Positions 1 through 56,926 of a stretch of 64,000 nt of DNA are shown one piece after another. The stretch is from the NCBI RefSeq assembly GCF_058153355.1, contig NZ_CM177019.1; one strand, given 5' to 3'. The notes under the pieces are model-generated. The model had not been told where the DNA came from. It did no database searches and saw only the letters and a list, made by a program, of their open reading frames with translations. The translations under genes were made by a program, and so were the position numbers. Every line of letters begins with the position of its first letter. Positions within the stretch are counted from its first letter, which is position 1.

Positions 1-172
1 GTCGAACGTTTTTCTTGGCGACTGTAAGACCGATACGGGGATGCCCCAGCGAATTCAGGCGGCCGAGAATGGTAATTTGCGGCGTGCCAGCCCGTTGTGG
101 CTGCTGGAAGACGAATGTGAATTGACTGGGAGTTAACAAGCGTAACTCCCTGGGAAATGCGAGCTTAACCAC
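1..172 (-). CDS. rnpA: RNase P protein component, N-terminal part; gene runs off the window start
   Basis: Minus-strand frame from a GTG at 170-172 translates [57 protein letters not shown]; lies directly downstream of rpmH as in the conserved rpmH-rnpA operon. Confidence 0.85.
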
Positions 173-188
173 TCAGGGGTTAGCTTTA

Positions 189-935
<747 letters not shown>

Positions 936-2339
936 GTGTCACTTTCGCTTTGGCAGCAGTGTCTTGCCCGATTGCAGGATGAGTTACCAGCCACAGAATT
1001 CAGTATGTGGATACGCCCATTGCAGGCGGAACTGAGCGATAACACGCTGGCCCTGTACGCGCCAAACCGTTTTGTCCTCGATTGGGTACGGGACAAGTAC
1101 CTTAATAATATCAATGGACTGCTAACCAGTTTCTGCGGAGCGGATGCCCCACAGCTGCGTTTTGAAGTCGGCACCAAACCGGTGACACAAACGCCACAAG
1201 CGGCAGTGACGAGCAACGTCGCGGCCCCAGCACAGGTGGCGCATGCGCAGCCGCAACGTGTTGCGCCTTCTACGCGTTCCGGTTGGGATAACGTCCCGGC
1301 TCCGGCAGAACCGACCTATCGTTCTAACGTAAACGTCAAACACACGTTTGATAACTTCGTTGAAGGTAAATCTAACCAACTGGCGCGCGCGGCGGCTCGT
1401 CAGGTGGCTGATAACCCTGGCGGTGCCTATAACCCGTTGTTCCTTTATGGCGGCACGGGTCTGGGTAAAACTCACCTGCTGCATGCGGTGGGTAACGGCA
1501 TTATGGCGCGTAAGCCGAATGCCAAAGTGGTTTATATGCACTCCGAGCGCTTTGTTCAGGACATGGTTAAAGCCCTGCAAAACAACGCGATCGAAGAGTT
1601 TAAACGCTACTACCGTTCCGTAGATGCACTGCTGATCGACGATATTCAGTTTTTTGCTAATAAAGAACGATCTCAGGAAGAGTTTTTCCACACCTTCAAC
1701 GCCCTGCTGGAAGGTAACCAGCAGATCATTCTCACCTCGGATCGCTATCCGAAAGAGATCAACGGCGTTGAGGATCGTCTGAAATCCCGCTTCGGTTGGG
1801 GACTGACTGTGGCGATCGAACCGCCAGAGTTAGAAACCCGCGTGGCGATCCTGATGAAAAAGGCCGACGAAAACGACATTCGTTTGCCGGGCGAAGTGGC
1901 GTTCTTTATCGCCAAGCGTCTACGCTCTAACGTACGTGAGCTGGAAGGGGCGTTGAACCGCGTCATTGCTAACGCTAACTTTACCGGACGGGCGATCACC
2001 ATCGACTTCGTGCGTGAGGCGCTGCGCGACTTGCTGGCATTGCAGGAAAAACTGGTCACCATCGACAATATTCAGAAGACGGTGGCAGAGTACTACAAGA
2101 TCAAAGTTGCGGATCTCCTTTCCAAGCGTCGATCCCGCTCGGTGGCGCGTCCGCGCCAGATGGCGATGGCGCTGGCGAAAGAGTTGACTAACCACAGTCT
2201 GCCGGAGATTGGCGATGCGTTTGGTGGTCGTGACCACACAACGGTGCTTCATGCTTGCCGGAAGATCGAGCAGTTGCGTGAAGAGAGCCACGATATCAAA
2301 GAAGATTTTTCAAATTTAATCAGAACATTGTCATCGTAA
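936..2339 (+). CDS. dnaA: Chromosomal replication initiator DnaA (GTG start)
   Basis: 467-aa product starting [30 protein letters not shown]; AAA+ Walker [12 protein letters not shown]; the ORF-track start at 924 is an upstream in-frame GTG. Confidence 0.97.
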
Positions 2340-2343
2340 ACCT

Positions 2344-3443
2344 ATGAAATTTACCGTAGAACGTGAGCATTTATTAAAACCGCTACAACAGGTGAGCGGT
2401 CCGTTAGGTGGTCGTCCTACGCTACCGATTCTCGGTAATCTGCTGTTACAGGTTGCTGACGGTACGTTGTCGCTGACCGGTACCGATCTCGAGATGGAAA
2501 TGGTGGCACGTGTTGCGCTGGTTCAGCCGCACGAACCAGGGGCGACGACCGTTCCGGCGCGCAAATTCTTTGATATCTGCCGTGGTCTGCCTGAAGGCGC
2601 GGAAATTGCCGTGCAACTGGAAGGTGAGCGGATGCTGGTGCGTTCCGGGCGTAGCCGTTTTTCGCTTTCCACCCTGCCAGCAGCAGATTTCCCGAACCTC
2701 GATGACTGGCAGAGCGAAGTCGAATTTACCCTGCCGCAGGCGACGATGAAGCGTCTGATTGAAGCGACTCAGTTTTCGATGGCGCATCAGGATGTTCGCT
2801 ATTACTTAAACGGTATGCTGTTCGAAACCGAAGGTGAAGAACTGCGCACCGTGGCGACCGACGGTCACCGTCTGGCGGTCTGTTCCATGCCAATTGGTCA
2901 GTCTTTGCCAAGCCATTCGGTGATCGTGCCGCGTAAAGGTGTGATTGAACTGATGCGTATGCTCGACGGCGGCGACAATCCGCTGCGCGTGCAAATTGGC
3001 AGCAACAATATACGTGCCCACGTCGGCGACTTTATCTTCACCTCCAAACTGGTGGATGGTCGCTTCCCGGATTACCGCCGTGTTCTGCCGAAGAACCCGG
3101 ACAAACATCTGGAAGCAGGCTGCGATCTGCTCAAGCAGGCGTTTGCCCGTGCGGCGATCCTCTCCAACGAGAAATTCCGCGGCGTGCGTCTGTATGTCAG
3201 CGAAAATCAGCTGAAAATCACCGCCAATAACCCGGAACAGGAAGAAGCGGAAGAGATCCTCGACGTTACCTATAGCGGTGCGGAGATGGAAATTGGCTTC
3301 AACGTCAGCTATGTGCTGGATGTTCTGAACGCGCTGAAATGCGAAAACGTGCGCATGATGCTGACCGATTCGGTTTCCAGTGTGCAGATTGAAGATGCCG
3401 CATCACAGTCGGCTGCCTATGTTGTCATGCCAATGAGACTGTA

Positions 3444-3444
<1 letters not shown>
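2344..3444 (+). CDS. dnaN: DNA polymerase III beta sliding clamp
   Basis: 366-aa [40 protein letters not shown]; conserved position after dnaA. Confidence 0.97.
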
Positions 3445-6960
<3,516 letters not shown>

Positions 6961-6985
6961 TGGCGTTAACAATGCGAGCGTGCAT

Positions 6986-7080
6986 GATGCGCTACGCTTA
7001 TCAGGCCTACGAGACTCCTGCAATATTTTGAATTTGCATGATTTTGTAGGCCGGATCAGACGTTAACGCCGCATTCGGCA
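6986..7080. repeat. Pair of REP palindromes (BIME-like) downstream of gyrB
   Basis: gatgcgctacgcttatcaggcctac (6986-7010) and inverted copy gtaggccggatcagacgttaacgccgcattcggc (7047-7080). Confidence 0.7.
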
Positions 7081-7092
7081 AGAAGCTATAAG

Positions 7093-7126
7093 AAAAGGGC
7101 GGAGATCATCTCCGCCCTTTTTATTT
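7093..7126 (+). terminator. Intrinsic terminator candidate after gyrB
   Basis: GC stem gggcggag / ctccgccc followed by a T-run (ctttttatttc). Confidence 0.65.
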
Positions 7127-7199
7127 CTGCAATCCGCGATTATCATCCCGCAGATCTATACTTTTTGAGTCAACACGTAACGCTTTACAGGTGATTATC

Positions 7200-7598
7200 A
7201 TGGGGCTTTTTGATGAAGTTGTCGGCGCCTTTCTGAAAGGCGATGCGGGGAAATATCAGGCTATTTTGAGTTGGGTTGAGGAGCAGGGTGGCATTCAGGT
7301 GCTGTTGGAAAAACTGCAAAGTGGCGGCTTAGGTGCCATTCTCTCAACCTGGTTGAGTAATCAACAGGGCAATCAGCCGGTGAGCGGCGAGCAACTGGAG
7401 TCGGCGCTCGGCACAAATGCGGTGTCCGATCTCGGGCAAAAACTGGGTGTAGATGCCAGTACGGCTTCCAGCTTGCTGGCAGAGCAACTGCCAAAGATTA
7501 TTGATGCTCTCTCACCGCAGGGTGAAGTGTCTTCGCAAACCAATAACGATCTGCTTTCCGCAGGCATGGAACTGCTGAAAGGGAAACTCTTCCGCTAA
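7200..7598 (+). CDS. yidB: DUF937 family protein YidB
   Basis: 132-aa product from ATG at 7200 (MGLFDEVVGAFLKGDAGKYQ); the ORF-track start at 7191 is an upstream GTG. Confidence 0.85.
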   Translation: MGLFDEVVGAFLKGDAGKYQAILSWVEEQGGIQVLLEKLQSGGLGAILSTWLSNQQGNQPVSGEQLESALGTNAVSDLGQKLGVDASTASSLLAEQLPKIIDALSPQGEVSSQTNNDLLSAGMELLKGKLFR

Positions 7599-7600
7599 GC

Positions 7601-7640
7601 AAAAGGGGAGCATGCAACGCGCGTTGCATCCCCCTTTTCC
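7601..7640. other. Near-perfect 40-bp palindrome / hairpin between yidB and yidA
   Basis: aaaaggggagcatgcaacgc | gcgttgcatcccccttttcc, centred at 7620/7621. Confidence 0.5.
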
Positions 7641-7712
7641 CTCGGGTGTTGTACTGATTTTTGAGCGGAATCGCGTTAGCATGGGTCAGGAACCAATCTA
7701 CCTGGGGAACTC

Positions 7713-8525
7713 ATGGCTATCAAACTCATTGCTATCGATATGGATGGCACCCTTCTGCTGCCCGATCACACCATTTCACCCGCTGTTAAAAACGCGATTG
7801 CCGCAGCTCGCGCCCGTGGCGTGAATGTCGTGCTAACGACGGGTCGCCCTTATGCAGGTGTTCACAACTACCTGAAAGAGCTGCATATGGAACAGCCGGG
7901 CGACTACTGCATTACTTATAACGGCGCGCTGGTACAGAAGGCCGCCGATGGTAGCACCGTGGCGCAAACCGCTCTCAGCTATGACGACTACCGTTTCCTG
8001 GAAAAACTCTCTCGCGAAGTCGGTTCTCATTTCCACGCCCTGGACCGCACCACGCTGTACACCGCCAACCGGGATATCAGCCCTTACACCGTGCATGAGT
8101 CGTTTGTGGCGACGATCCCGCTGGTGTTCTGCGAAGCGGAGAAAATGGACCCCAATACCCAGTTCCTGAAAGTGATGATGATTGATGAACCCGCCATCCT
8201 CGACCAGGCTATCGCGCGTATTCCGCAGGAAGTGAAAGAGAAATATACCGTGCTGAAAAGTGCGCCGTACTTCCTCGAAATCCTCGATAAACGCGTTAAC
8301 AAAGGTACAGGTGTGAAATCACTGGCCGATGTGCTGGGCATTAAGCCGGAAGAAATCATGGCGATTGGCGATCAGGAAAACGACATCGCAATGATTGAAT
8401 ATGCAGGTGTTGGTGTGGCAATGGATAACGCTATTCCTTCGGTGAAAGAAGTGGCGAACTTTGTCACCAAATCCAACCTGGAAGATGGCGTGGCGTTTGC
8501 TATTGAGAAGTATGTGCTGAATTAA
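7713..8525 (+). CDS. yidA: HAD-family (Cof-type) sugar phosphatase YidA
   Basis: 270-aa ORF; HAD motif I in IAIDMDGTLL; C-terminal GDQENDIAM motif. Confidence 0.93.
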   Translation: MAIKLIAIDMDGTLLLPDHTISPAVKNAIAAARARGVNVVLTTGRPYAGVHNYLKELHMEQPGDYCITYNGALVQKAADGSTVAQTALSYDDYRFLEKLSREVGSHFHALDRTTLYTANRDISPYTVHESFVATIPLVFCEAEKMDPNTQFLKVMMIDEPAILDQAIARIPQEVKEKYTVLKSAPYFLEILDKRVNKGTGVKSLADVLGIKPEEIMAIGDQENDIAMIEYAGVGVAMDNAIPSVKEVANFVTKSNLEDGVAFAIEKYVLN

Positions 8526-8534
8526 TCAGTGGGA

Positions 8535-8561
8535 GGGCAAACTGCATAAATGCGTTTGCCC
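8535..8561. terminator. Hairpin between the convergent genes yidA and yidX; possible bidirectional terminator
   Basis: gggcaaac ... gtttgccc stem. Confidence 0.5.
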
Positions 8562-8568
8562 GCAGCGA

Positions 8569-9225
8569 TTAACAATTTCTGGTCGTGCATAAAATCAGGA
8601 ACTGGAGTGGTGACGTTACTATATCCAGCGTAAGAGTGACTGGTAGCAGTGCATTAGCGAGGCCGCGCGGAACGCCATCAGTTGCTTTGTACTTATAAAA
8701 TCCCACCGTAAAGGGTTGATGGAAAACCATCACGTTTGAGTAATCCGCTTTTTTATTTTTCTGGTGGATAGAGCCTTTCAGGCCGTCAAGTGCCCAGGTA
8801 CAACGCTGGGTATTACAAATAAAACCATATTGTGTCGCCAGTGCTTTATCTTCCTCATTATCCCAGTCGTAATAGAGCGTTATTGAACCAGAAAAATTAG
8901 TATCACTGCTGCTTAAAATAAATTTCGCGTTATCGGAAACGGTGATTCTTTCGCCATGAATTGCCGGATCGTTCAGCATTTTAACCACCTCGCCGCCGCC
9001 CGTGGTCAACAGATAGTCCAACGATTCACCAACAAAAACATAGCCTTTCGTACCGTTACTATCCTCTGCCAGCGATAACCCCTTAATCGAGTCTGACCGC
9101 CATTGCTCGGCATGTGGAGGACTTGCGGTATTGGAAACCAACCCCCAAGTGAGACAACCGGTCAACGCAAATGCCAAAGAACACAAACCGGCAGCCTTAA
9201 AAAATCCCTTAAAATTCAACTTTAT
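8569..9225 (-). CDS. yidX: Lipoprotein YidX (218 codons if started at the ATA codon 9223-9225)
   Basis: Signal peptide plus lipobox ([23 protein letters not shown]); AAAGGA Shine-Dalgarno 5 nt upstream; the codon at the expected start is ATA, not ATG; the ORF-track frame stays open up to 9342. Confidence 0.75.
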
Positions 9226-9359
9226 GACTAATCCTTTAAACGAGTAGCTAAGCCGTTGAAAGCATACTCTTCTTTCCCTCCTGTTTAGCGCCTGATATCC
9301 CTTTTCAGATTTCTGCCCGACGCATGTCATTTTTTTATGCATTGTTCTTTTTGTGATCT

Positions 9360-9440
9360 AAATTGTAGTACAACAATATAACTTTGTACTACATTACGCA
9401 TACAGCAAACGCGAACGTCATCACGCTGGTACTACAAAAT
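9360..9440 (+). promoter_or_regulatory. dgo promoter / DgoR operator region
   Basis: Three copies of TGTA(G/C)TACA (9364-9372, 9386-9394, 9429-9437) immediately upstream of dgoR; consistent with GntR/FadR-type operators. Confidence 0.55.
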
Positions 9441-9502
9441 TGCCGCGTTATGCATCGATCGGGGTAAAGTAGAGAAGTACATACAGAGCACAAGGACTCT
9501 CC

Positions 9503-10192
9503 ATGACTCTCAATAAAACCGATCGCATCGTCATTACGCTGGGCAAACAGATCGTTCACGGCAAATACGTGCCAGGCTCGCCGCTTCCGGCCGAGGCGGA
9601 ACTTTGTGAGGAGTTTGCAACCTCGCGCAACATCATCCGTGAGGTGTTTCGTTCGCTGATGGCGAAGCGGCTGATTGAAATGAAACGTTATCGCGGGGCG
9701 TTTGTGGCACCGCGTAATCAGTGGAATTACCTCGATACTGACGTGCTGCAATGGGTGCTGGAAAACGACTACGACCCACGGCTTATCAGTGCAATGAGCG
9801 AAGTGCGAAATCTGGTGGAACCGGCGATTGCCCGTTGGGCGGCAGAGCGCGCGACTTCCAGCGATCTGGCGCAGATTGAATCAGCGCTGAACGAGATGAT
9901 CGCCAACAATCAGGACCGCGAAGCGTTTAACGAAGCGGATATTCGCTATCACGAGGCGGTACTGCAATCAGTGCATAACCCGGTGTTACAGCAACTTAGC
10001 ATTGCGATTAGTTCATTACAGCGGGCGGTTTTTGAACGAACCTGGATGGGCGATGAGGCCAACATGCCGCAAACGCTCCAGGAACATAAGGCGCTGTTTG
10101 ATGCGATACGGCATCAGGACGGCGATGCGGCAGAGCAGGCGGCGCTTACCATGATCGCCAGCTCGACACGAAGGTTAAAGGAAATCACATGA
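9503..10192 (+). CDS. dgoR: GntR/FadR-family repressor of D-galactonate catabolism
   Basis: 229-aa ORF; first gene of the dgo cluster. Confidence 0.92.
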   Translation: MTLNKTDRIVITLGKQIVHGKYVPGSPLPAEAELCEEFATSRNIIREVFRSLMAKRLIEMKRYRGAFVAPRNQWNYLDTDVLQWVLENDYDPRLISAMSEVRNLVEPAIARWAAERATSSDLAQIESALNEMIANNQDREAFNEADIRYHEAVLQSVHNPVLQQLSIAISSLQRAVFERTWMGDEANMPQTLQEHKALFDAIRHQDGDAAEQAALTMIASSTRRLKEIT

Positions 10193-11067
10193 CAGCTCGC
10201 TACATCGCAATTGACTGGGGATCGACCAATCTGCGCGCCTGGCTTTATCAGGGCGACCACTGCCTGGACAGCAGGCAATCAGAAGCAGGCGTTACGCGTC
10301 TGAACGGAAAATCTCCGGCTGCGGTGTTAGCAGAAGTGACGACCGACTGGTGTGAAGAGAATACGCCAGTGGTGATGGCAGGAATGGTTGGCAGCAATGT
10401 CGGCTGGAAAGTTGCGCCGTATTTATCTGTTCCTGCCCGTTTTTCGTCTATTGGCGAACAATTAACGTCTGTTGGCGACAATATCTGGATTATTCCCGGA
10501 TTATGCGTTTCTCATGATGATAACCACAATGTGATGCGCGGCGAAGAAACACAATTGATCGGCGCGCGTGCTTTGGCTCCTTCCTCTCTTTATGTCATGC
10601 CCGGTACGCATTGCAAATGGGTGCAGGCCGATAGCCAGCAAATCAACGATTTTCGCACCGTGATGACCGGTGAATTACATCATTTACTGTTAAATCATTC
10701 ATTGATTGGCGCAGGTTTACCACCGCAGGAAAACTCTGCCGATGCCTTCGCGGCTGGCCTTGAGCGTGGTCTCAATGCGCCCGCCATATTGCCGCAGCTT
10801 TTTGAAGTTCGTGCCTCGCATGTGCTGGGAACACTTCCCCGTGAACAGGTCAGCGAATTTCTCTCTGGTTTGTTGATTGGCGCAGAGGTCGCCAGTATGC
10901 GCGACTACGTGGTCCATCAACACGCCATCACCCTTGTCGCCGGAACATCGCTGACTGCACGCTACCAGCAAGCCTTTCAGGCGATGGGTTGCGACGTGAC
11001 GGCGGTGGCGGGCGACACGGCATTTCAGGCTGGTATAAGGAGCATCGCTCATGCAGTGGCAAACTAA
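10189..11067 (+). CDS. dgoK: 2-dehydro-3-deoxygalactonokinase
   Basis: 292-aa ORF; start overlaps the dgoR stop. Confidence 0.92.
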   Translation: MTARYIAIDWGSTNLRAWLYQGDHCLDSRQSEAGVTRLNGKSPAAVLAEVTTDWCEENTPVVMAGMVGSNVGWKVAPYLSVPARFSSIGEQLTSVGDNIWIIPGLCVSHDDNHNVMRGEETQLIGARALAPSSLYVMPGTHCKWVQADSQQINDFRTVMTGELHHLLLNHSLIGAGLPPQENSADAFAAGLERGLNAPAILPQLFEVRASHVLGTLPREQVSEFLSGLLIGAEVASMRDYVVHQHAITLVAGTSLTARYQQAFQAMGCDVTAVAGDTAFQAGIRSIAHAVAN

Positions 11068-11668
11068 ACTCCCGCTGATCGCCATTTTGCGCGGTATTAC
11101 GCCCGACGAGGCGCTGGCGCATGTTGGCGCGGTGATTGACGCTGGGTTCGACGCGGTTGAAATCCCTCTGAATTCCCCACAATGGGAACAAAGCATTCCC
11201 GCCATCGTTGATGCGTATGGCGACAAGGCGTTGATTGGCGCAGGTACGGTACTGAAACCTGAACAGGTCGATGCGCTCGCCAGGATGGGCTGTCAGCTCA
11301 TCGTTACGCCCAATATCCATAGTGAAGTGATCCGCCGCGCGGTGGGCTATGGCATGACCGTTTGCCCCGGCTGCGCGACGGCGACAGAAGCCTTTACCGC
11401 GATCGACGCGGGCGCTCAGGCGCTGAAAATATTCCCGTCATCGGCTTTTGGGCCGCAATACATCAAAGCGTTAAAAGCGGTATTACCGCAGGACATCCCG
11501 GTCTTTGCCGTAGGCGGTGTGACGCCAGAAAACCTGGCGCAGTGGATAGACGCAGGTTGTGCAGGGGCGGGCTTAGGCAGCGATCTCTATCGCGCCGGGC
11601 AGTCCGTAGAACGCACCGCGCAGCAGGCAGCAGCATTTGTTAAGGCGTATCGAGAGGCAGTGCAATGA
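11051..11668 (+). CDS. dgoA: 2-dehydro-3-deoxy-6-phosphogalactonate aldolase
   Basis: 205-aa ORF in conserved dgo gene order. Confidence 0.92.
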
Positions 11669-12702
11669 AAATCACCAACATTACTACGTATCGTTTACCT
11701 CCCCGCTGGATGTTCCTGAAAATTGAAACTGATGAAGGCGTGGTCGGTTGGGGCGAGCCCGTGATCGAAGGCCGCGCTCGTACGGTGGAAGCGGCAGTTC
11801 ACGAGCTGAGTGACTATTTGATTGGTCAGGATCCATCGCGCATCAATGACTTATGGCAAGTGATGTATCGCGCCGGATTTTATCGTGGCGGTCCGATTCT
11901 GATGAGCGCCATCGCCGGGATCGACCAGGCGTTATGGGATATCAAAGGTAAAGTGCTGAATGCGCCGGTCTGGCAACTGATGGGCGGCCTGGTTCGCGAC
12001 AAAATTAAAGCCTACAGTTGGGTCGGCGGCGATCGTCCGGCGGATGTTATCGACGGCATTAAAACGCTACGCGAAATCGGCTTCGATACCTTCAAACTGA
12101 ACGGTTGTGAAGAACTGGGATTGATTGATAACTCCCGCGCGGTAGATGCGGCGGTCAACACCGTGGCACAAATTCGTGAAGCTTTTGGCAATCAGATTGA
12201 GTTTGGTCTTGATTTCCACGGTCGCGTCAGCGCGCCGATGGCGAAAGTGCTGATTAAAGAACTGGAACCGTATCGCCCTCTGTTTATTGAAGAGCCGGTG
12301 CTGGCGGAACAAGCCGAATACTACCCGAAACTGGCAGCACAAACTCACATCCCACTGGCGGCGGGTGAGCGCATGTTCTCACGTTTCGATTTTAAACGTG
12401 TGCTGGAAGCTGGCGGTATTTCGATTCTGCAACCCGATCTTTCTCACGCAGGTGGTATTACCGAATGCTACAAAATTGCCGGAATGGCGGAAGCCTATGA
12501 CGTGACCCTTGCGCCGCACTGTCCGCTCGGCCCGATTGCACTGGCGGCTTGCCTGCATATCGACTTTGTTTCCTATAACGCGGTACTTCAGGAACAAAGT
12601 ATGGGCATTCATTACAACAAAGGCGCGGAGTTACTCGACTTTGTGAAAAATAAAGAAGACTTCAGCATGGTCGGTAATGCCGATCAGTTAAGGATCAGTT
12701 GA
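11665..12702 (+). pseudogene. dgoD: D-galactonate dehydratase, truncated by IS4 after about codon 336; the last 8 codons and the stop are read from IS4 sequence
   Basis: Enolase-superfamily N-terminus ([32 protein letters not shown]); reading frame runs into the IS4 left inverted repeat at 12675 and ends NADQLRIS*; full-length DgoD is about 382 aa as I recall. Confidence 0.88.
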
Positions 12703-14100
12703 CCGATCCAGTGGCTGTGTAAGAATCCGGAAACGCTCACTTGTTTCCGGATTTTTTTATGCACATTGGACAGGCTCTTGATCTGGTATCCCGTTACGAT
12801 TCTCTGCGTAACCCACTGACTTCTCTGGGGGATTACCTCGACCCCGAACTCATCTCTCGTTGCCTTGCCGAATCAGGTACTGTAACGCTACGCAAGCGCC
12901 GTCTTCCCCTCGAAATGATGGTCTGGTGTATTGTTGGCATGGCGCTTGAGCGTAAAGAACCTCTTCACCAGATTGTGAATCGCCTGGACATCATGCTGCC
13001 GGGCAATCGCCCCTTCGTTGCCCCCAGTGCCGTTATTCAGGCCCGCCAGCGCCTGGGAAGTGAGGCTGTCCGCCGCGTGTTCACGAAAACAGCGCAGCTC
13101 TGGCATAACGCCACGCCGCATCCGCACTGGTGCGGCCTGACCCTGCTGGCCATCGATGGTGTGTTCTGGCGCACACCGGATACACCAGAGAACGATGCAG
13201 CCTTCCCCCGCCAGACACATGCCGGGAACCCGGCGCTCTACCCGCAGGTCAAAATGGTCTGCCAGATGGAACTGACCAGCCATCTGCTGACGGCTGCAGC
13301 CTTCGGCACGATGAAGAACAGCGAAAATGAGCTTGCTGAGCAACTTATAGAACAAACCGGCGATAACACTCTGACGTTAATGGATAAAGGTTATTACTCA
13401 CTGGGACTGTTAAATGCCTGGAGCCTGGCGGGAGAACACCGCCACTGGATGATACCTCTCAGAAAGGGAGCGCAATATGAAGAGATCAGAAAACTGGGTA
13501 AAGGCGATCATCTGGTGAAGCTGAAAACCAGCCCGCAGGCACGAAAAAAGTGGCCGGGACTGGGAAATGAAGTGACAGCCCGCCTGCTGACCGTGACGCG
13601 CAAAGGAAAAGTCTGCCATCTGCTGACGTCGATGACGGACGCCATGCGCTTCCCCGGAGGAGAAATGGCGGATCTGTACAGTCATCGCTGGGAAATCGAA
13701 CTGGGATACAGGGAGATAAAACAGACGATGCAACTGAGCAGGCTGACGCTGAGAAGTAAAAAGCCGGAGCTTGTGGAGCAAGAGCTGTGGGGTGTCTTAC
13801 TGGCTTATAATCTGGTGAGATATCAGATGATTAAAATGGCGGAACATCTGAAAGGTTACTGGCCGAATCAACTGAGTTTCTCAGAATCATGCGGAATGGT
13901 GATGAGAATGCTGATGACATTGCAGGGCGCTTCACCGGGACGTATACCGGAGCTGATGCGCGATCTTGCAAGTATGGGACAACTTGTGAAATTACCGACA
14001 AGAAGGGAAAGGGCCTTCCCGAGAGTGGTAAAGGAGAGGCCCTGGAAATACCCCACAGCCCCGAAAAAGAGCCAGTCAGTTGCTTAACTGACTGGCATTA
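12675..14100 (+). mobile_element. IS4, complete (1426 bp) with imperfect 18-bp terminal inverted repeats
   Basis: Left IR taatgccgatcagttaag (12675-12692); right IR cttaactgactggcatta (14083-14100); flanks tcagcatggtcgg and gaccgatttggcc do not form a direct repeat. Confidence 0.93.
12759..14087 (+). CDS. insG: IS4 transposase (DDE)
   Basis: 442-aa product from ATG at 12759 ([31 protein letters not shown]...); the ORF-track start at 12741 is an upstream TTG. Confidence 0.93.
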
Positions 14101-14134: not shown

Positions 14135-16600
<2,466 letters not shown>

Positions 16601-18034
16601 CTATTTCAAGCGATAGTAAAGCTCACGGTACGACTTCGCCGCGACCTGCCAGCTAAAATCCATTGCCATAGCCTGACGTTGCACAAACCGCCACAGTGAA
16701 GGACGGGACCACAGTACAAAAGCACGTCGAATAGCCCGTAACAGCGACCAGGCATTACTATCTTCAAAGACAAACCCACTGGCGACGCCATCTGCAAGGT
16801 TCTCAAGAGAACAGTCAGAAACCGTATCAGCAAGCCCACCGGTGCGCCGCACTAACGGCAGCGTACCGTACTTCAATCCATAAAGTTGCGTTAAGCCGCA
16901 CGGTTCAAAACGGCTGGGCACCAGAATGACGTCCGCGCCGCCCATAATGCGATGCGAAAATGCTTCGTGATAGCCAATCTGAACGCCCACTTGTCCGGGA
17001 TATTCCGCGGCCGCGGCAAGGAAACCTTCCTGCAACACCGGATCACCCGCGCCGAGTAGCGCCAGCTGTCCGCCCTGCTCCAGAAGGCCTGGTAAGGCTT
17101 CCAGCACCAGGTCGAGACCTTTCTGGCTGGTCAGACGGCTCACCACTGCAAAAAGCGGCACTTTATCGTCAACCTTAAGCCCCATTGCGATTTGTAACTG
17201 GCGCTTATTCTCCGCTTTATCTTCCAATGTATCGCGGGTGTAACGCGAGGCCAACAGTAAGTCCGTCTCTGGACTCCAGATTTTTTCGTCCACGCCGTTT
17301 AGTACGCCGGAAAGACGCCCTTCACGGTGACGCTGCTGCAACAGACCTTCCATACCGTAGGCAAACTGCGGTTCGGTGATCTCGCGAGCGTAGGTCGGGC
17401 TGACCGCCGTAATATGATCGGCATAGTACAGACCAGCCTTCAGGAAAGAGATTTGTCCGTTGAATTCCAGCCCATGAATATTAAAGAATGACCATGGCAA
17501 TTGAATGTCATTCATGTGATGTGCATAAAACATGCCTTGATAGGCCAGGTTGTGCACAGTAAACACCGACTTCGCCGGACGCCCGCGCGCCGCCAGATAC
17601 GCAGGCGCAAGGCCCGCATGCCAGTCGTGCGCATGCACCACATCAGGGCGCCAGAATGGGTCAAGCCCGCTGGCCATTTCTGCCCCAACCCACCCAAGCA
17701 GCGCAAAACGCAATACGTTGTCAGTGTAGGCAAATAAGTTGGTATCGTGATACGGGCTTCCCGGACGATCATAGAGATGCGGCGCGTCAATCAGGTAAAT
17801 GCCAACCCCGTTGTAATGGCCGAACAACAGCGTGATATGCCCTGCGAAGGTATCACGGCGAGATACCACCTGCGCATCGGTTACGCCACGGCGAATATCG
17901 GGAAATGCAGGCAACAGTACGCGAGCGTCAACGCCGTCTGCGATTTGTGCTGCGGGTAATGCCCCAATAACATCAGCCAGACCGCCGGTTTTAAGCAGCG
18001 GGAACATCTCTGAACATACATGTAAAACCTGCAT
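16601..18034 (-). CDS. glgA: Glycogen synthase
   Basis: 477-aa [25 protein letters not shown]. Confidence 0.96.
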
Positions 18035-19329
18035 TATCGCTCCTGTTTATGCCCTAACTTCCGTAGCATTTCGCGCGTTACCAGCACGATGCCTTCTTCT
18101 GAACGATAGAAACGACGTGCATCTTCCTCTGCGTTTTCACCAATCACCATGCCTTCCGGAATAACACAAGCACGATCAATGACGCAGCGGCGCAGACGGC
18201 ACGAGCGACCTACCCATACTTCCGGTAACAATACGGCGGAATCAATGTTGCAGAATGAATTCACGCGAACGCGCGAGAACAGAACGGACTGCACCACCAC
18301 CGAACCGGAGATCACACAACCGCCGGAAACCAGTGAGTTAAGGGTCATCCCGTGGCTACCGGAGCGATCTTGCACGAATTTCGCTGGCGGTAATGATTCA
18401 TTGTAGGTGCGAATTGGCCAATTGCGATCGTACATATCCAGTTCCGGCACCACTGATGCCAGATCGAGGTTCGCTTTCCAGTAAGCTTCAAGCGTACCCA
18501 CATCGCGCCAGTACGGCTCGGCATCCGGGTCGGATTGTACGCAAGAGAGCGGGAACGGGTGCGCATAGGCCAGACCGGCTTCGGTGATTTTGGGAATCAA
18601 ATCTTTACCAAAGTCGTGGCTGGAGTTCTCATCGCGATCATCTTCTTCCAGCAGTTCATACAGATAGTCGGCGTCAAAGACGTAGATACCCATGCTCGCC
18701 AGAGATTTGCTCGGGTCGTTCGGCATTGACGGCGGGTTAGCGGGTTTTTCAACGAATTCGATAATTTTATCGTTCTCATCAACCGCCATAACGCCAAATG
18801 CGGAGGCTTCTTCAATCGGTACAGGCATACAAGCGACGGTGCAACGTGCGCCTTTTTCGACGTGGTCGATAAGCATACGCGAGTAGTCTTGCTTGTAGAT
18901 ATGGTCGCCCGCCAGGATCACCACATATTCCGCTTTGTAACGGCGAATAATGTCGAGGTTTTGCGTGACCGCATCTGCGGTGCCGCGATACCAGTTTTCC
19001 CCTTTCATTCTCTGCTGCGCTGGCAACAGATCGACAAACTCGTTCATTTCTTCATTGAAGAATGACCAGCCGCGCTGAATGTGCTGCACCAGAGTATGGG
19101 ACTGGTACTGGGTGATCACGCCCATACGACGGATCCCGGAGTTGATGCAGTTAGACAGTGCAAAGTCGATAATGCGGAACTTACCGCCGAAGTGTACGGC
19201 CGGTTTTGCTCGCTTATTGGTTAAATCCTTCAGGCGGGTACCACGTCCTCCCGCCAGTATCAGGGCAACAGATTTCAATGGCAGCTGGCGCGCCAACATT
19301 AAGTGATCGTTCTTCTCTAAACTAACCAT
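18034..19329 (-). CDS. glgC: Glucose-1-phosphate adenylyltransferase
   Basis: 431-aa product from the Met at [17 protein letters not shown]; the ORF-track frame extends 12 codons upstream. Confidence 0.95.
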
Positions 19330-19380
19330 GACTAACTCCTTTTTTATCATCTCTGGAACACACACAATCCGTGTGCAGGT
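19330..19380 (-). promoter_or_regulatory. glgC 5' leader with GGA motifs (CsrA-binding region by established knowledge)
   Basis: Minus-strand read cacacggattgtgtgtgttccagagatgataaaaaaggagttagtcATG; GGA in a hairpin and in the Shine-Dalgarno. Confidence 0.55.
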
Positions 19381-21320
19381 CCCTGCCAGACAGCCGTAAT
19401 CACTGGGTTATCCTCTCCAGCGAATGGGGGAATGGCGTGCCACTCCCCAGCAGGTAAAACAATCTCTGTTACCTCAAGCGTGGCGTTAATTGCGATCAAA
19501 AAGCGATCCGAGAGCAGAATTTGCAGCTGTTTCGGCCCGTTTTGCCACTCATCCGTGCTTAAAGGTTGAGCATATCGATTTAGCCAACGGACATTGCCGT
19601 CGCCTTCTTCCCACCAGCGATTCTCCACCAAAGCGGGAATGCGCTTGCGCAGATGGATTAACGCAGCGGTAAATGCGGTTAAACCACTGCTTGCCTGCGA
19701 CCAGTCCAACCAGGTTAATTGATTATCCTGACAGTAGGCATTGTTATTGCCATGCTGGCTATGACCATGTTCGTCACCGGCCAGTAACATCGGCGTACCC
19801 TGGGAGAGCAACAACGTTGTTAACAGGGCGTGAATGCTGTCGCGCCGCCGTTCAACCAGGTCAAGAGTACCGCCTAATCCTTCTTTACCATGATTGTTAC
19901 TGTAATTGTTGTTGGTCCCGTCGCGATTTTCTTCTCCGTTTGCTTCATTGTGTTTATGGTTGAAGCAAACGCAGTCGCGAAGCGTAAAACCGTCATGCGC
20001 GGTGACGAGATTAATCGCAGCACTCGGCAGACGACCATTACGTTTAAAAACATCGCTGGAGGCAGCAAAACGCCCGGCAAACGCCCCCAGAGGCAAATCA
20101 TAATGCAGCCAGAAACGACGGGCAGCATCACGGAAATGATCGTTCCACTCAGCAAACAGTGGCGGGAAATTTCCCACCTGATAACCACCAGGCGCAATAT
20201 CCCACGGTTCGGCAATTAACTTCACCTGCGAGAGCACCGGGCAGTTCTGAATTGCGGTAAACAACGGAGCATCCTGACGGAACTCAGGCGTACGGCCCAT
20301 GACTGCCGCCAGATCAAAACGGAAACCATCGACGTGGCAGGTTTCTACCCAATAACGCAGGCAGGCGCTGGCATAATCCACCACCGCCGGATGACTCAAA
20401 TTAAGCGTGTTGCCACAGCCTGTCCAATTGTGATAATCACCGTCTTCTCTTATCCAATAATAGCTACGGTTGTCGATCCCACGCAGAGAGAATAACGGAC
20501 CGTCGAGGTCCAGTTCCGCACTATGGTTAAGCACGATATCAAGAATGACTTCGATACCCGCTTTATGCAGTGCTTTGATTGCATCGCGAAACTCATTCAG
20601 CGCCGTTTCTGGCGAGCAGGCATACGCCGGATGCAGCGCAAACATCGCTACCGGGTTATAGCCCCAGTAGTTACTTAACCCCATACGTTGCAGGCGTGGT
20701 TCGCTGGCAAATTGTGCCACCGGCAGCAACTCCAGCGCAGTAATGCCCAACTGTTTCAAATAGTTGATCATCACCGGATGCCCCAGGGCTTTATAAGTGC
20801 CGCGGATATCGACCGGGATCTCCGGGTGCAGATACGTTAATCCTTTGACATGGGCTTCATAAATGATAGTGCTGCCCCACGGCGTGCGCGGCGGGGCATC
20901 ATCCTCCCAGTCATAGTGATCAACCACCACTACACATTTCGGCGCAATGGCGGCGTTGTCGCGATAGTCAGGTTCATTATGACCTGCGTGCAGCAGCGGG
21001 TTATCTTTAAACTCCCCGTCAATTTGCCGCGCGCAAGGATCAATCAACAACTTCGCCGGGTTAAAGCGATGTCCCTCGGCGGGTCGCCAGGGGCCATGAA
21101 CGCGATAACCATAACGCAAACCCGGACGCGCATCCGGCAGATAACCGTGCCAAATGTCGCCACTGTGCCCTGGCAAGTCATAGCGATGTTCCTGGCCATT
21201 GGCGTCAAAGATACACAGTTCTACCCGCTCGGCATGAGCGGAGAAAAGTGTGAAGTTGACGCCCTGACCGTCGTAATGCGCGCCGAGGGGTGCGGGTTTG
21301 CCAATGGCGAGTTGTGTCAT
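19347..21320 (-). CDS. glgX: Glycogen debranching enzyme
   Basis: 657-aa GH13 ORF. Confidence 0.95.
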
Positions 21321-23503
21321 TCTGCCTCCCGAACCAGCCAGATAGTGGCCAGCGGTGGTAGTGTCAGGCTTAGTGAATGCTGACGACCGTGGCTGGCAAT
21401 CTCATCGCTGTGTACCGTGCCGCCATTGCCTGCATTACTGCCGTGATAGTGCATGGAATCGGTATTGAGGATCTCACGCCATTTACCCGGCTGGTTAATG
21501 CCGAAGCGATAATCATGACGCGGCACCGGAGTAAAGTTACTGGCAACGATGATTTCGTTACCCTCTTTATCGCGACGCACAAAGATCAGCACCGAGCGTT
21601 CTTTGTCATCCACCACCAGCCATTCAAAACCGTACGGGTCAAAATCCAGTTCATGCATCGCTTTATGGTGGCGGTAGGTGAGGTTCAGATCGCGCACCAG
21701 ACGCTGGACACCGTGGTGCCAGTTATCGCCGCCTTCCAACAGATGCCAGTCGAGGCTGGCGTCATGGTTCCACTCGCGGCCCTGGGCAAATTCGTTCCCC
21801 ATGAACAGCAGTTTCTTGCCCGGGAATGCCCACATCCAGCCATAGTACGCGCGCAAGTTAGCGAATTTCTGCCATGCGTCGCCTGGCATCCTGTCGAGAA
21901 TCGATTTTTTACCGTGGACCACTTCATCATGCGACAACGGCAGGACGAAGTTTTCAGTGTAGTTGTAGAGCATCCCGAAGGTCAGTTTATCGTGATGATA
22001 CTGACGATAAACCGGGTCGAGCTTCATGTAGTCCAGGGTGTCATGCATCCAGCCTAGGTTCCACTTGTACCAGAAGCCCAGACCGCCCATGTCCTGCGGA
22101 CGAGAAACGCCAGGGAAATCGGTAGACTCCTCCGCCATTGTCACCGCACCGGAAACCTGCTCACCAAGAATACGGTTGGTATTACGCAAGAATTCAATCG
22201 CTTCAAGATTCTCGCGCCCGCCAAATTCGTTCGGGATCCACTCCCCCTCTTTACGGCTGTAGTCACGATAAATCATTGACGCCACCGCATCGACGCGCAG
22301 CGCATCAATACCAAAACGTTCGATCCAGTAAAGCGCGTTACCGACAAGGAAGTTACTGACTTCACGGCGACCATAGTTGTAGATCAGCGTATTCCAGTCC
22401 TGATGATAGCCTTCGCGCGGATCGCTGTGTTCATACAAGTTCGTGCCATCAAATTCGGCAAGCGCAAAGTCATCGGTCGGGAAGTGGCCTGGCACCCAGT
22501 CGAGAATCACGTTCAGACCAGCTGCGTGTGCGGCATCAATGAAATAACGGAAGTCGTCGCGGGTACCAAAACGGCGGGTCGGTGCATACAGGCCGGTTGG
22601 CTGATAACCCCAACTGCCATCGAACGGATGCTCGTTAATGGGCAGCAGTTCGAGGTGGGTAAAGCCCATCCATTTAGCATAAGGCACCAGTTGATCGGCC
22701 AGCTCGCGGTAGCTCAACCAGAAATTGTTGTCGGTGTGGCGACGCCAGGAGCCCAGGTGAACTTCATAAATAGAGATTGGCGCATCAAACTGATTCGCTT
22801 TTTTGCGCTCTTCAGTCTGCACAACCTTTTCCGGCAGCCCGCAAATAAGAGACGCGGTTTCCGGGCGCATTTGCGCTTCGAAGGCATAAGGGTCGGACTT
22901 CAGACGCAAGTTGCCATTGGCATCAATCATCTCGTATTTATAGAGCTGACCGTTATGCGCCCCAGGGATAAACAGTTCCCAGATGCCGCTCTCTTTACGC
23001 AGGCGCATCGGATGACGGCGACCGTCCCAGTAGTTGAATTGCCCAACCACCGAGACCCGACGGGCGTTTGGAGCCCAGACAGAAAAACGCGTACCTGTGA
23101 CGCCATCCATAGTATCTGCATGCGCGCCTAAGGTTTCATATGGGCGCAGATGCGTACCTTCAGATAATAGCCAGGCATCCATTTCCTGGATTAGCGGACC
23201 AAAACGGTAAGGATCATCTATCAGGTTTTGCTGACCATGCCAGACAACAGCCAACTGATAGCGGAAAAAATTCTTACGTCGCGGAATGACACCGCTAAAG
23301 AATCCACGTGAGTCGAGACACTCCAGTTTTGCGAGTTTACGCCCGGTTTTCGGTTCAATCACCCACACATCGGTAGCGTCGGGTAAAAGGGCACGGACTT
23401 CCAGTCCCGCGGTGGTTTTATGCATCCCCAGTACGGAAAAAGGATCCGCAAAATGGCCTGCAATTAGCGCGTTAATCACGTCTCTATCGATACGATCGGA
23501 CAT
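21317..23503 (-). CDS. glgB: 1,4-alpha-glucan branching enzyme
   Basis: 728-aa ORF; start overlaps glgX. Confidence 0.96.
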
Positions 23504-36629: not shown

Positions 36630-37513
36630 TGGTAACGCACCTTGCTTTCAACATAGCGGAACTGCACCACCGTCAGCACGATGACGAGGAACATCAACAC
36701 CACCGACTGCGCGGCAGACGAAGCCAAATCCAGCCCGGTAAAACCTTCGCGGTAGATCTTATAAATTAGCGTCGTGGTAGCCTGTACTGGTCCGCCGGAC
36801 GTGGCGGCGTCAATCACCGGGAAGGTATCGAAGAAGGCGTACACCAGGTTCACCACCAGCAGGAAGAAACTCACCGGCGCAATCAGCGGCAGCGCAATCT
36901 TAAAGAAGCGGCGAATCGGGCCAGCCCCATCAATGGCTGCGGCTTCAATCAACGAACGGGGAATGGATTGCAGCGCGGCATAGAAGAACAGAAAGTTGTA
37001 GCTGATTTGCTTCCATACTGAGGCAAACACCACCAGGAACATTGCCTGACCGCTGTTTTGCGCATGGTTCCAGTCGTAGCCGAACTCAGCGAGAAAATGA
37101 GTGATCAGCCCGCGACCAGGGTTAAACAGGAAGATCCACAATACGGCGGCAACGGCGGGAGCCACGGCATACGGCAGCAGCATTAAGGTTTGATAGAAAC
37201 GGCTGCCGCGCACGATGTACTCCACCAGCGCCGCGAAGAACAGCGACACCAGCAAACCGCTGACGGTGACAAAGGTGCTGAATTTTATCGTCGTCCAGAA
37301 GGAGTCGAGATAGTAGCTGTCATGAAACAGCGTGACGAAGTTATCCAGGCCGACAAACTGGCTGGAAAAGCCAAACGGATCGACGCTTTGTAGCGAGTAC
37401 CACAACGCTTCGCCCGCAGGCCAGATAAAAAAGATAACGGTGATGATAAGCTGCGGCGCGACCAGCAAATAAGGCAGCCAGCGCGAGCGGAACACCGGAC
37501 GGGATGATGACAT
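36626..37513 (-). CDS. ugpA: sn-glycerol-3-phosphate ABC transporter permease
   Basis: 295-aa membrane ORF. Confidence 0.95.

Positions 37514-55673: not shown

Positions 55674-56926
<1,253 letters not shown>

Follow-up and report, generated by a model that had tools for sequence, protein, structure and literature searches.

The window that we analyzed, a stretch of 64,000 nucleotides, is a segment of the Escherichia coli chromosome near oriC and carries dnaA, dnaN, recF, gyrB, yidB, yidA, yidX and the dgoRKAD genes. In the list of open reading frames, yidA spans positions 7713–8525 on the plus strand, and dgoR, with which dgoRKAD begins at 9503, spans 9503–10192 on the same strand. Between them, divergent from dgoR, yidX lies on the minus strand at 8569–9225 with 218 codons followed by TAA, which is the gene order expected for the YidX family and the order found in all annotated references. 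The gene belongs to a non-K-12 allele class and, codon 1 aside, is intact. Positions 1–12674 of the window are 99.0–99.3% identical to the closest complete genomes, so the exact strain is absent from the reference set.

The dgo genes end in a complete IS4 element at 12675–14100 (1,426 bp; 18-nt terminal inverted repeats at 12675–12692 and 14083–14100), whose transposase reading frame occupies 12741–14087 (NF033592, E=9e-91). IS4 interrupts dgoD at about codon 337, and galactonate catabolism should thus be lost in the strain. Past the element (junction 12674/14101), neither the rest of dgoD nor dgoT is present; instead, glgP-glgA-glgC-glgX-glgB-asd and further genes follow at 14135–23503 on the opposite strand. 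Other strains, WP3-S18-ESBL-09 among them, natively have an IS4 beside glgP. The most probable explanation is thus an inversion bounded by IS4, by which the truncated dgoD came to adjoin the glgP region; on the K-12 map these two loci are about 300 kb apart. Further along, a 326-aa reading frame at 55898–56878 (plus strand) matches the model of IS110-family RNA-guided transposases (NF033542, E=3e-75), which points to an IS110-family (IS621-like) insertion in the window. When the closest genomes were compared with positions 37000–61900 (95% coverage, in two pieces), about 1.25 kb was absent from them, and this absent stretch may be the IS110-family element.

The predicted YidX protein of the window is 216/218 identical to WP_000772930.1 over its full length, and annotated 'YidX family protein' entries are 99% identical to it. 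Although the window protein itself matched no model in our copies of Pfam-A and NCBIfam, near-identical proteins carry a precomputed match to PF27265 (YidX_N). The earlier note had recognized a lipoprotein signal peptide after the start position, and translation confirms it: residues 1–23 (9157..9225, minus strand) comprise lysines in the n-region and a hydrophobic core, and the lipobox L-T-G-C, judged by eye against [LVI][ASTVI][GAS]C, lies at 9165..9154 and ends at residue 24, the putative lipidated Cys24 (9156..9154). As for function, no sequence match was found in PADLOC or the PDB, and the literature yielded papers that mention yidX without functional data.

The window gene shares with E. 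coli K-12 yidX (b3696; PF27265 YidX_N) its position between yidA and dgoR, its length of 218 aa and a conserved N-terminus, but it represents a second, deeply divergent and sharply bounded allele class (60–78% DNA identity to K-12 yidX) and has no ATG start codon. Against K-12/B-type sequences, positions 8510–9190 of the window, that is yidX from about codon 13 to its 3' end plus the yidA spacer, show 59–78% DNA identity, whereas the flanks are 94–100% identical; at the protein level the two types share 59% identity (E=1e-97). Two such classes with sharp boundaries are found in E. coli as a whole, with about 3,520 complete genomes carrying the K-12-type yidX and about 1,900 the window type. 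This pattern suggests that a probable envelope lipoprotein has long been under balancing or diversifying selection, or that one of its alleles was replaced long ago.

The minus strand around the start of yidX reads ...TTTAAAGGATTAGTC ATA AAG TTG AAT TTT AAG..., where ATA corresponds to positions 9225..9223. The observation that prompted this analysis, namely ATA at the expected yidX start codon and 218 codons counted from it, holds on both points: the frame from ATA runs through 218 codons to TAA at 8571..8569, and in the alignment ATA falls in the column that holds ATG in the references. The comparison with reference alleles that the earlier note had recommended gave a clear answer, since the PGAP coding sequences of strains 2013C-4282, Z226-7, UTI89 and a B-type strain, which cover both allele types, all encode 218 aa and start with ATG at exactly this column. 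An identical start arrangement, also with ATG, is seen in Escherichia whittamii and in Escherichia sp. E1V33. The alignments thus show that 9225..9223 is the true homologous start position of yidX. The derived base is a T for C at position 9223 of the plus strand, a G-to-A transition on the coding strand that changes ATG (M) to ATA (I).

We then asked how widespread this codon is. None of 5,426 complete E. coli genomes contained an exact copy of a 61-mer centered on ATA; 4,150 of them matched it with one or two mismatches. Nor was a UTI89-type 65-mer carrying ATA matched exactly in a further 389 genomes. The testable complete genomes thus total 4,539, about 890 others having flanks too divergent to be scored by k-mer. 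An exact 35-mer with ATA was likewise found neither in 100,044 GTDB species-representative genomes nor in JGI metagenome contigs. As a control, the 35-mer pattern with NNN in place of the start codon retrieved 22 metagenome contigs, 21 with ATG and one with ATT; altogether, ATG was present in 23 of 24 yidX contigs retrieved and in all references. The single ATT contig (L038, OCAQ01003244.1, from a gut metagenome) carries a UTI89-type yidX, and its start is either an independent third-position change or a low-coverage error. The yidX protein of the window with Met1 restored is on record in at least 185 contigs, and all four that were fetched have ATG.

In 12.6 kb compared with the four closest genomes, 34 substitutions are private to the window, and the C-to-T change at 9223 is the only one of them within yidX or its flanking spacers. 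ATA is thus, among the sequences compared, private to the window sequence. Reference alleles with ATA, which according to the earlier note would speak against a start-codon mutation, were looked for and not found, and of the explanations offered there this mutation is the one that gains support, given ATG in all compared alleles and ATA in the window alone. We conclude from the alleles compared that ATA is the derived state, produced by a G-to-A transition in an allele that is common and intact in all other respects, and that the change is recent, because no secondary decay has followed. For screening of assemblies, the string that carries the ATA allele is TTTAAAGGATTARTCATAAAGTTGAAT.

An allele seen in one sequence only could also reflect a sequencing or assembly error, with G (ATG) as the true base and ATA as a consensus miscall, and no artefact could be smaller than one substituted base. 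We nevertheless regard such an error as unlikely. Compared with its closest relatives, the window shows no indel over 12.6 kb, and its 32 private substitutions in coding sequence include 29 synonymous ones. This is the picture expected of evolved variation filtered by selection, in an accurate assembly, and not of random base-call errors. The three private non-synonymous changes are yidX M1I, dgoK R55C and dgoD G49S, and the latter two, at positions 10351 and 11809, are the only ones besides M1I in the first 12.6 kb. Both fall in the dgo operon broken by IS4, where they are consistent with relaxed selection, which they suit better than random error. In addition, the C-to-T change belongs to the G:C to A:T transitions, the commonest class of spontaneous mutation in E. 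coli. Deamination at a Dcm hotspot (CCWGG) was considered as the cause of this change and rejected, as inspection by eye of the plus-strand context CTTCATGAC revealed no Dcm site.

The reading frame upstream of ATA is open for 44 codons, back to TAG at 9360..9358, and contains two in-frame ATGs (9342..9340 and 9330..9328, minus strand). It is open to 9342 as the earlier note had reported, and translation from the ATG at 9342 or 9330 would lengthen the protein ahead of its signal peptide, to 257 or 253 aa respectively. Several lines of evidence make such an upstream start highly improbable. Neither ATG is preceded by a Shine–Dalgarno sequence, the best anti-Shine–Dalgarno duplex reaching -0.9 kcal/mol versus -5.4 kcal/mol for AAAGGA. 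Moreover, the frame is closed after 20 codons, with no ATG, in UTI89-type alleles and after nine codons in Escherichia sp. E1V33, which argues that the extension is not coding sequence. In the extended protein, moreover, a highly charged leader of about 39 residues would precede the signal peptide and bury it. A scan of positions 8450–9560 returned neither promoter-like sites nor terminators, and Rfam gave no relevant match. The rejection of these ATGs as starts is thus upheld by the missing Shine–Dalgarno sequence and by a frame that is not conserved.

The Shine–Dalgarno-like AAAGGA upstream of ATA is present as described previously, at 9237..9232 on the minus strand, but its spacer is 6 nt (TTAGTC) and not 5 nt, a trivial difference. 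What the earlier note had missed is that codon 3 (9219..9217), which encodes Leu3 of the normal protein and lies 12 nt from AAAGGA, is an in-frame TTG. As a candidate rescue start, it would yield a protein beginning MNFKGFFK.... One and the same AAAGGA site (duplex with the 16S 3' end, -5.4 kcal/mol) would serve both ATA and TTG. Local folding is predicted to be the same whether the codon is ATA or ATG, and a hairpin that might sequester the Shine–Dalgarno sequence (probability of being unpaired, 0.04) was dismissed, being no stabler than shuffled sequences (z = -0.72) and the same for both codons.

In E. coli reporters, initiation at AUA, AUC, AUU and CUG reached 1–2% of AUG with sfGFP and 0.02–3% with NanoLuc, and GUG and UUG fell in the 10–100% class (Hecht et al., bioRxiv 10.1101/063800). 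The optimum aligned spacing, expressed as DtoStart, is 13–14 (PMC9841429), and the corresponding values here are 12 for ATA and 18 for TTG, so that rescue by UUG may be weak. We therefore consider the codon-3 TTG a plausible but suboptimal start that could rescue the same mature lipoprotein. The predicted UUG-start product keeps two lysines, the hydrophobic core and the lipobox. An N-terminus equivalent to it occurs in nature: in the yidX allele of contig ABSLRQ010000020.1 (GCA_039856675.1; L019, 1501–2151), codons 2 and 3 (AAGTTG) are deleted, and ATG-AAT... specifies a 216-aa protein, MNFKRFFK..., whose source records name both E. coli and Shigella flexneri. This 216-aa 'MNFKRFF' protein (P0009) was considered as a possible annotation of the TTG start and discarded, since it really derives from a 6-nt in-frame deletion that keeps ATG.

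These observations can be combined into the following scheme. The comparisons show that a recent, strain-private point mutation turned the conserved ATG of yidX into ATA and left the promoter region, the Shine–Dalgarno sequence, the signal peptide, the lipobox and the other 217 codons unchanged. As a probable consequence, efficient initiation at the normal site would be lost. Residual translation could start from the near-cognate AUA, at perhaps about 1–2% of AUG as in E. coli reporters, or from the UUG that follows in frame six bases further on and would use the same Shine–Dalgarno sequence, although the 12-nt spacer is long. Cleavage by signal peptidase II would take place at Cys24, so the AUA and UUG products should mature to the same lipoprotein, in much smaller amounts. 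ATA should thus sharply cut or abolish YidX production, but with an in-frame TTG that could rescue synthesis yidX is not necessarily dead, and the most fitting description of the allele is that of a strong hypomorph or incipient pseudogene, not of a certain null.

A different view is that ATA is a selected, functional non-canonical start, which would keep YidX expression low and sensitive to IF3 in the manner of the infC AUU. Near-cognate AUA does support measurable initiation in E. coli, and the Shine–Dalgarno sequence and whole reading frame are intact; a maintained start should however be conserved, whereas every other allele has ATG except for the one ATT contig, and ATA is private. We consequently give this reading hardly any credence, and the suggestion in the earlier note of a rare non-canonical start gains little support, no other ATA having turned up in the sequences searched. 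The AUU start codons of infC (IF3) and pcnB, which serve autoregulation or low expression, are conserved across strains and species. AUU is, like the yidX ATA, an AUN-type codon subject to IF3 discrimination, but the infC and pcnB starts are conserved and the yidX ATA is confined to one sequence; the conservation of a non-AUG codon among orthologues and strains that marks the infC type is not seen at yidX. The reporter constructs of Hecht et al. (bioRxiv 10.1101/063800) are closer in arrangement, having AUA at a proper Shine–Dalgarno distance, with an expected output of about 1–2% of AUG, but those codons were engineered, whereas a spontaneous mutation of a gene on the chromosome gave rise to the yidX ATA.

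A further likeness is to start-codon-loss alleles and incipient pseudogenes of dispensable genes in E. coli and Shigella. In these, as in yidX, the canonical start of a non-essential gene has been replaced, here from ATG to a codon outside ATG/GTG/TTG, and the genome of the window shows the loss of another gene nearby (dgoD, through IS4). yidX differs from them in two respects. It has a candidate alternative start, the TTG at codon 3 that shares the Shine–Dalgarno sequence and could keep the product, and it shows no secondary decay: its 218 codons are intact and match a widespread allele in all but codon 1. Collectively, the comparisons make it quite probable that a private ATG-to-ATA mutation has produced a hypomorph or incipient pseudogene of a dispensable gene and not a regulated non-canonical start.

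The non-K-12 yidX has been recurrently inactivated in other strains (L005–L014, L020–L025). The independent lesions include a stop at W27, in several backgrounds, and one-base frameshifts, some of them in the T-run of codons 8–9; in CP049609.1, an IS with a DDE transposase has inserted into the gene. Eight gene-caller products of the locus were looked up by exact sequence, and only the Met1 version and a 136-aa version starting at an internal ATG were on record; the product of the TTG start (216 aa), those of the upstream ATGs (257 and 253 aa) and those of three downstream TTG starts had no exact record. The 136-aa product was tried as a route to other carriers of ATA without success, as none of the ten contigs fetched has ATA. 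Of these ten, five retain ATG but are damaged elsewhere by the W27 stop or a frameshift, and in two more the frame shifts soon after the start; a further two are N-filled at the start and one carries an IS (DDE transposase) insertion. A 205-aa product (P0005) is explained by a one-base loss in the T-run or by N-filled scaffolds. Taken together, the lesions indicate that yidX is dispensable and is broken in other ways in other strains.

One could go further and see in ATA not neutral decay but a lesion favored by selection, as one of many that have independently knocked yidX down or out, with AUA and UUG giving a low, IF3-sensitive trickle of protein. We consider this very doubtful. If it were true, it would point to antagonistic selection on YidX, a probably envelope-exposed lipoprotein with two ancient allele classes; phages, colicin-like toxins and recognition by the host are examples of what might exert it. 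We favor the simpler account, that the yidX ATA is an ordinary strain-specific mutation that involves no new biological mechanism and by itself raises no new question.

The mutation has practical consequences for annotation. Gene callers will misplace the start at the upstream ATG (257 aa), truncate yidX or drop it, and the correct label would be 'yidX, start codon mutated ATG>ATA, possible re-initiation at TTG codon 3'. For the biology of E. coli, the yidX ATA is a further example of a dispensable gene at the onset of loss, and it offers a natural test case for the chromosomal output of a near-cognate AUA together with a nearby UUG.
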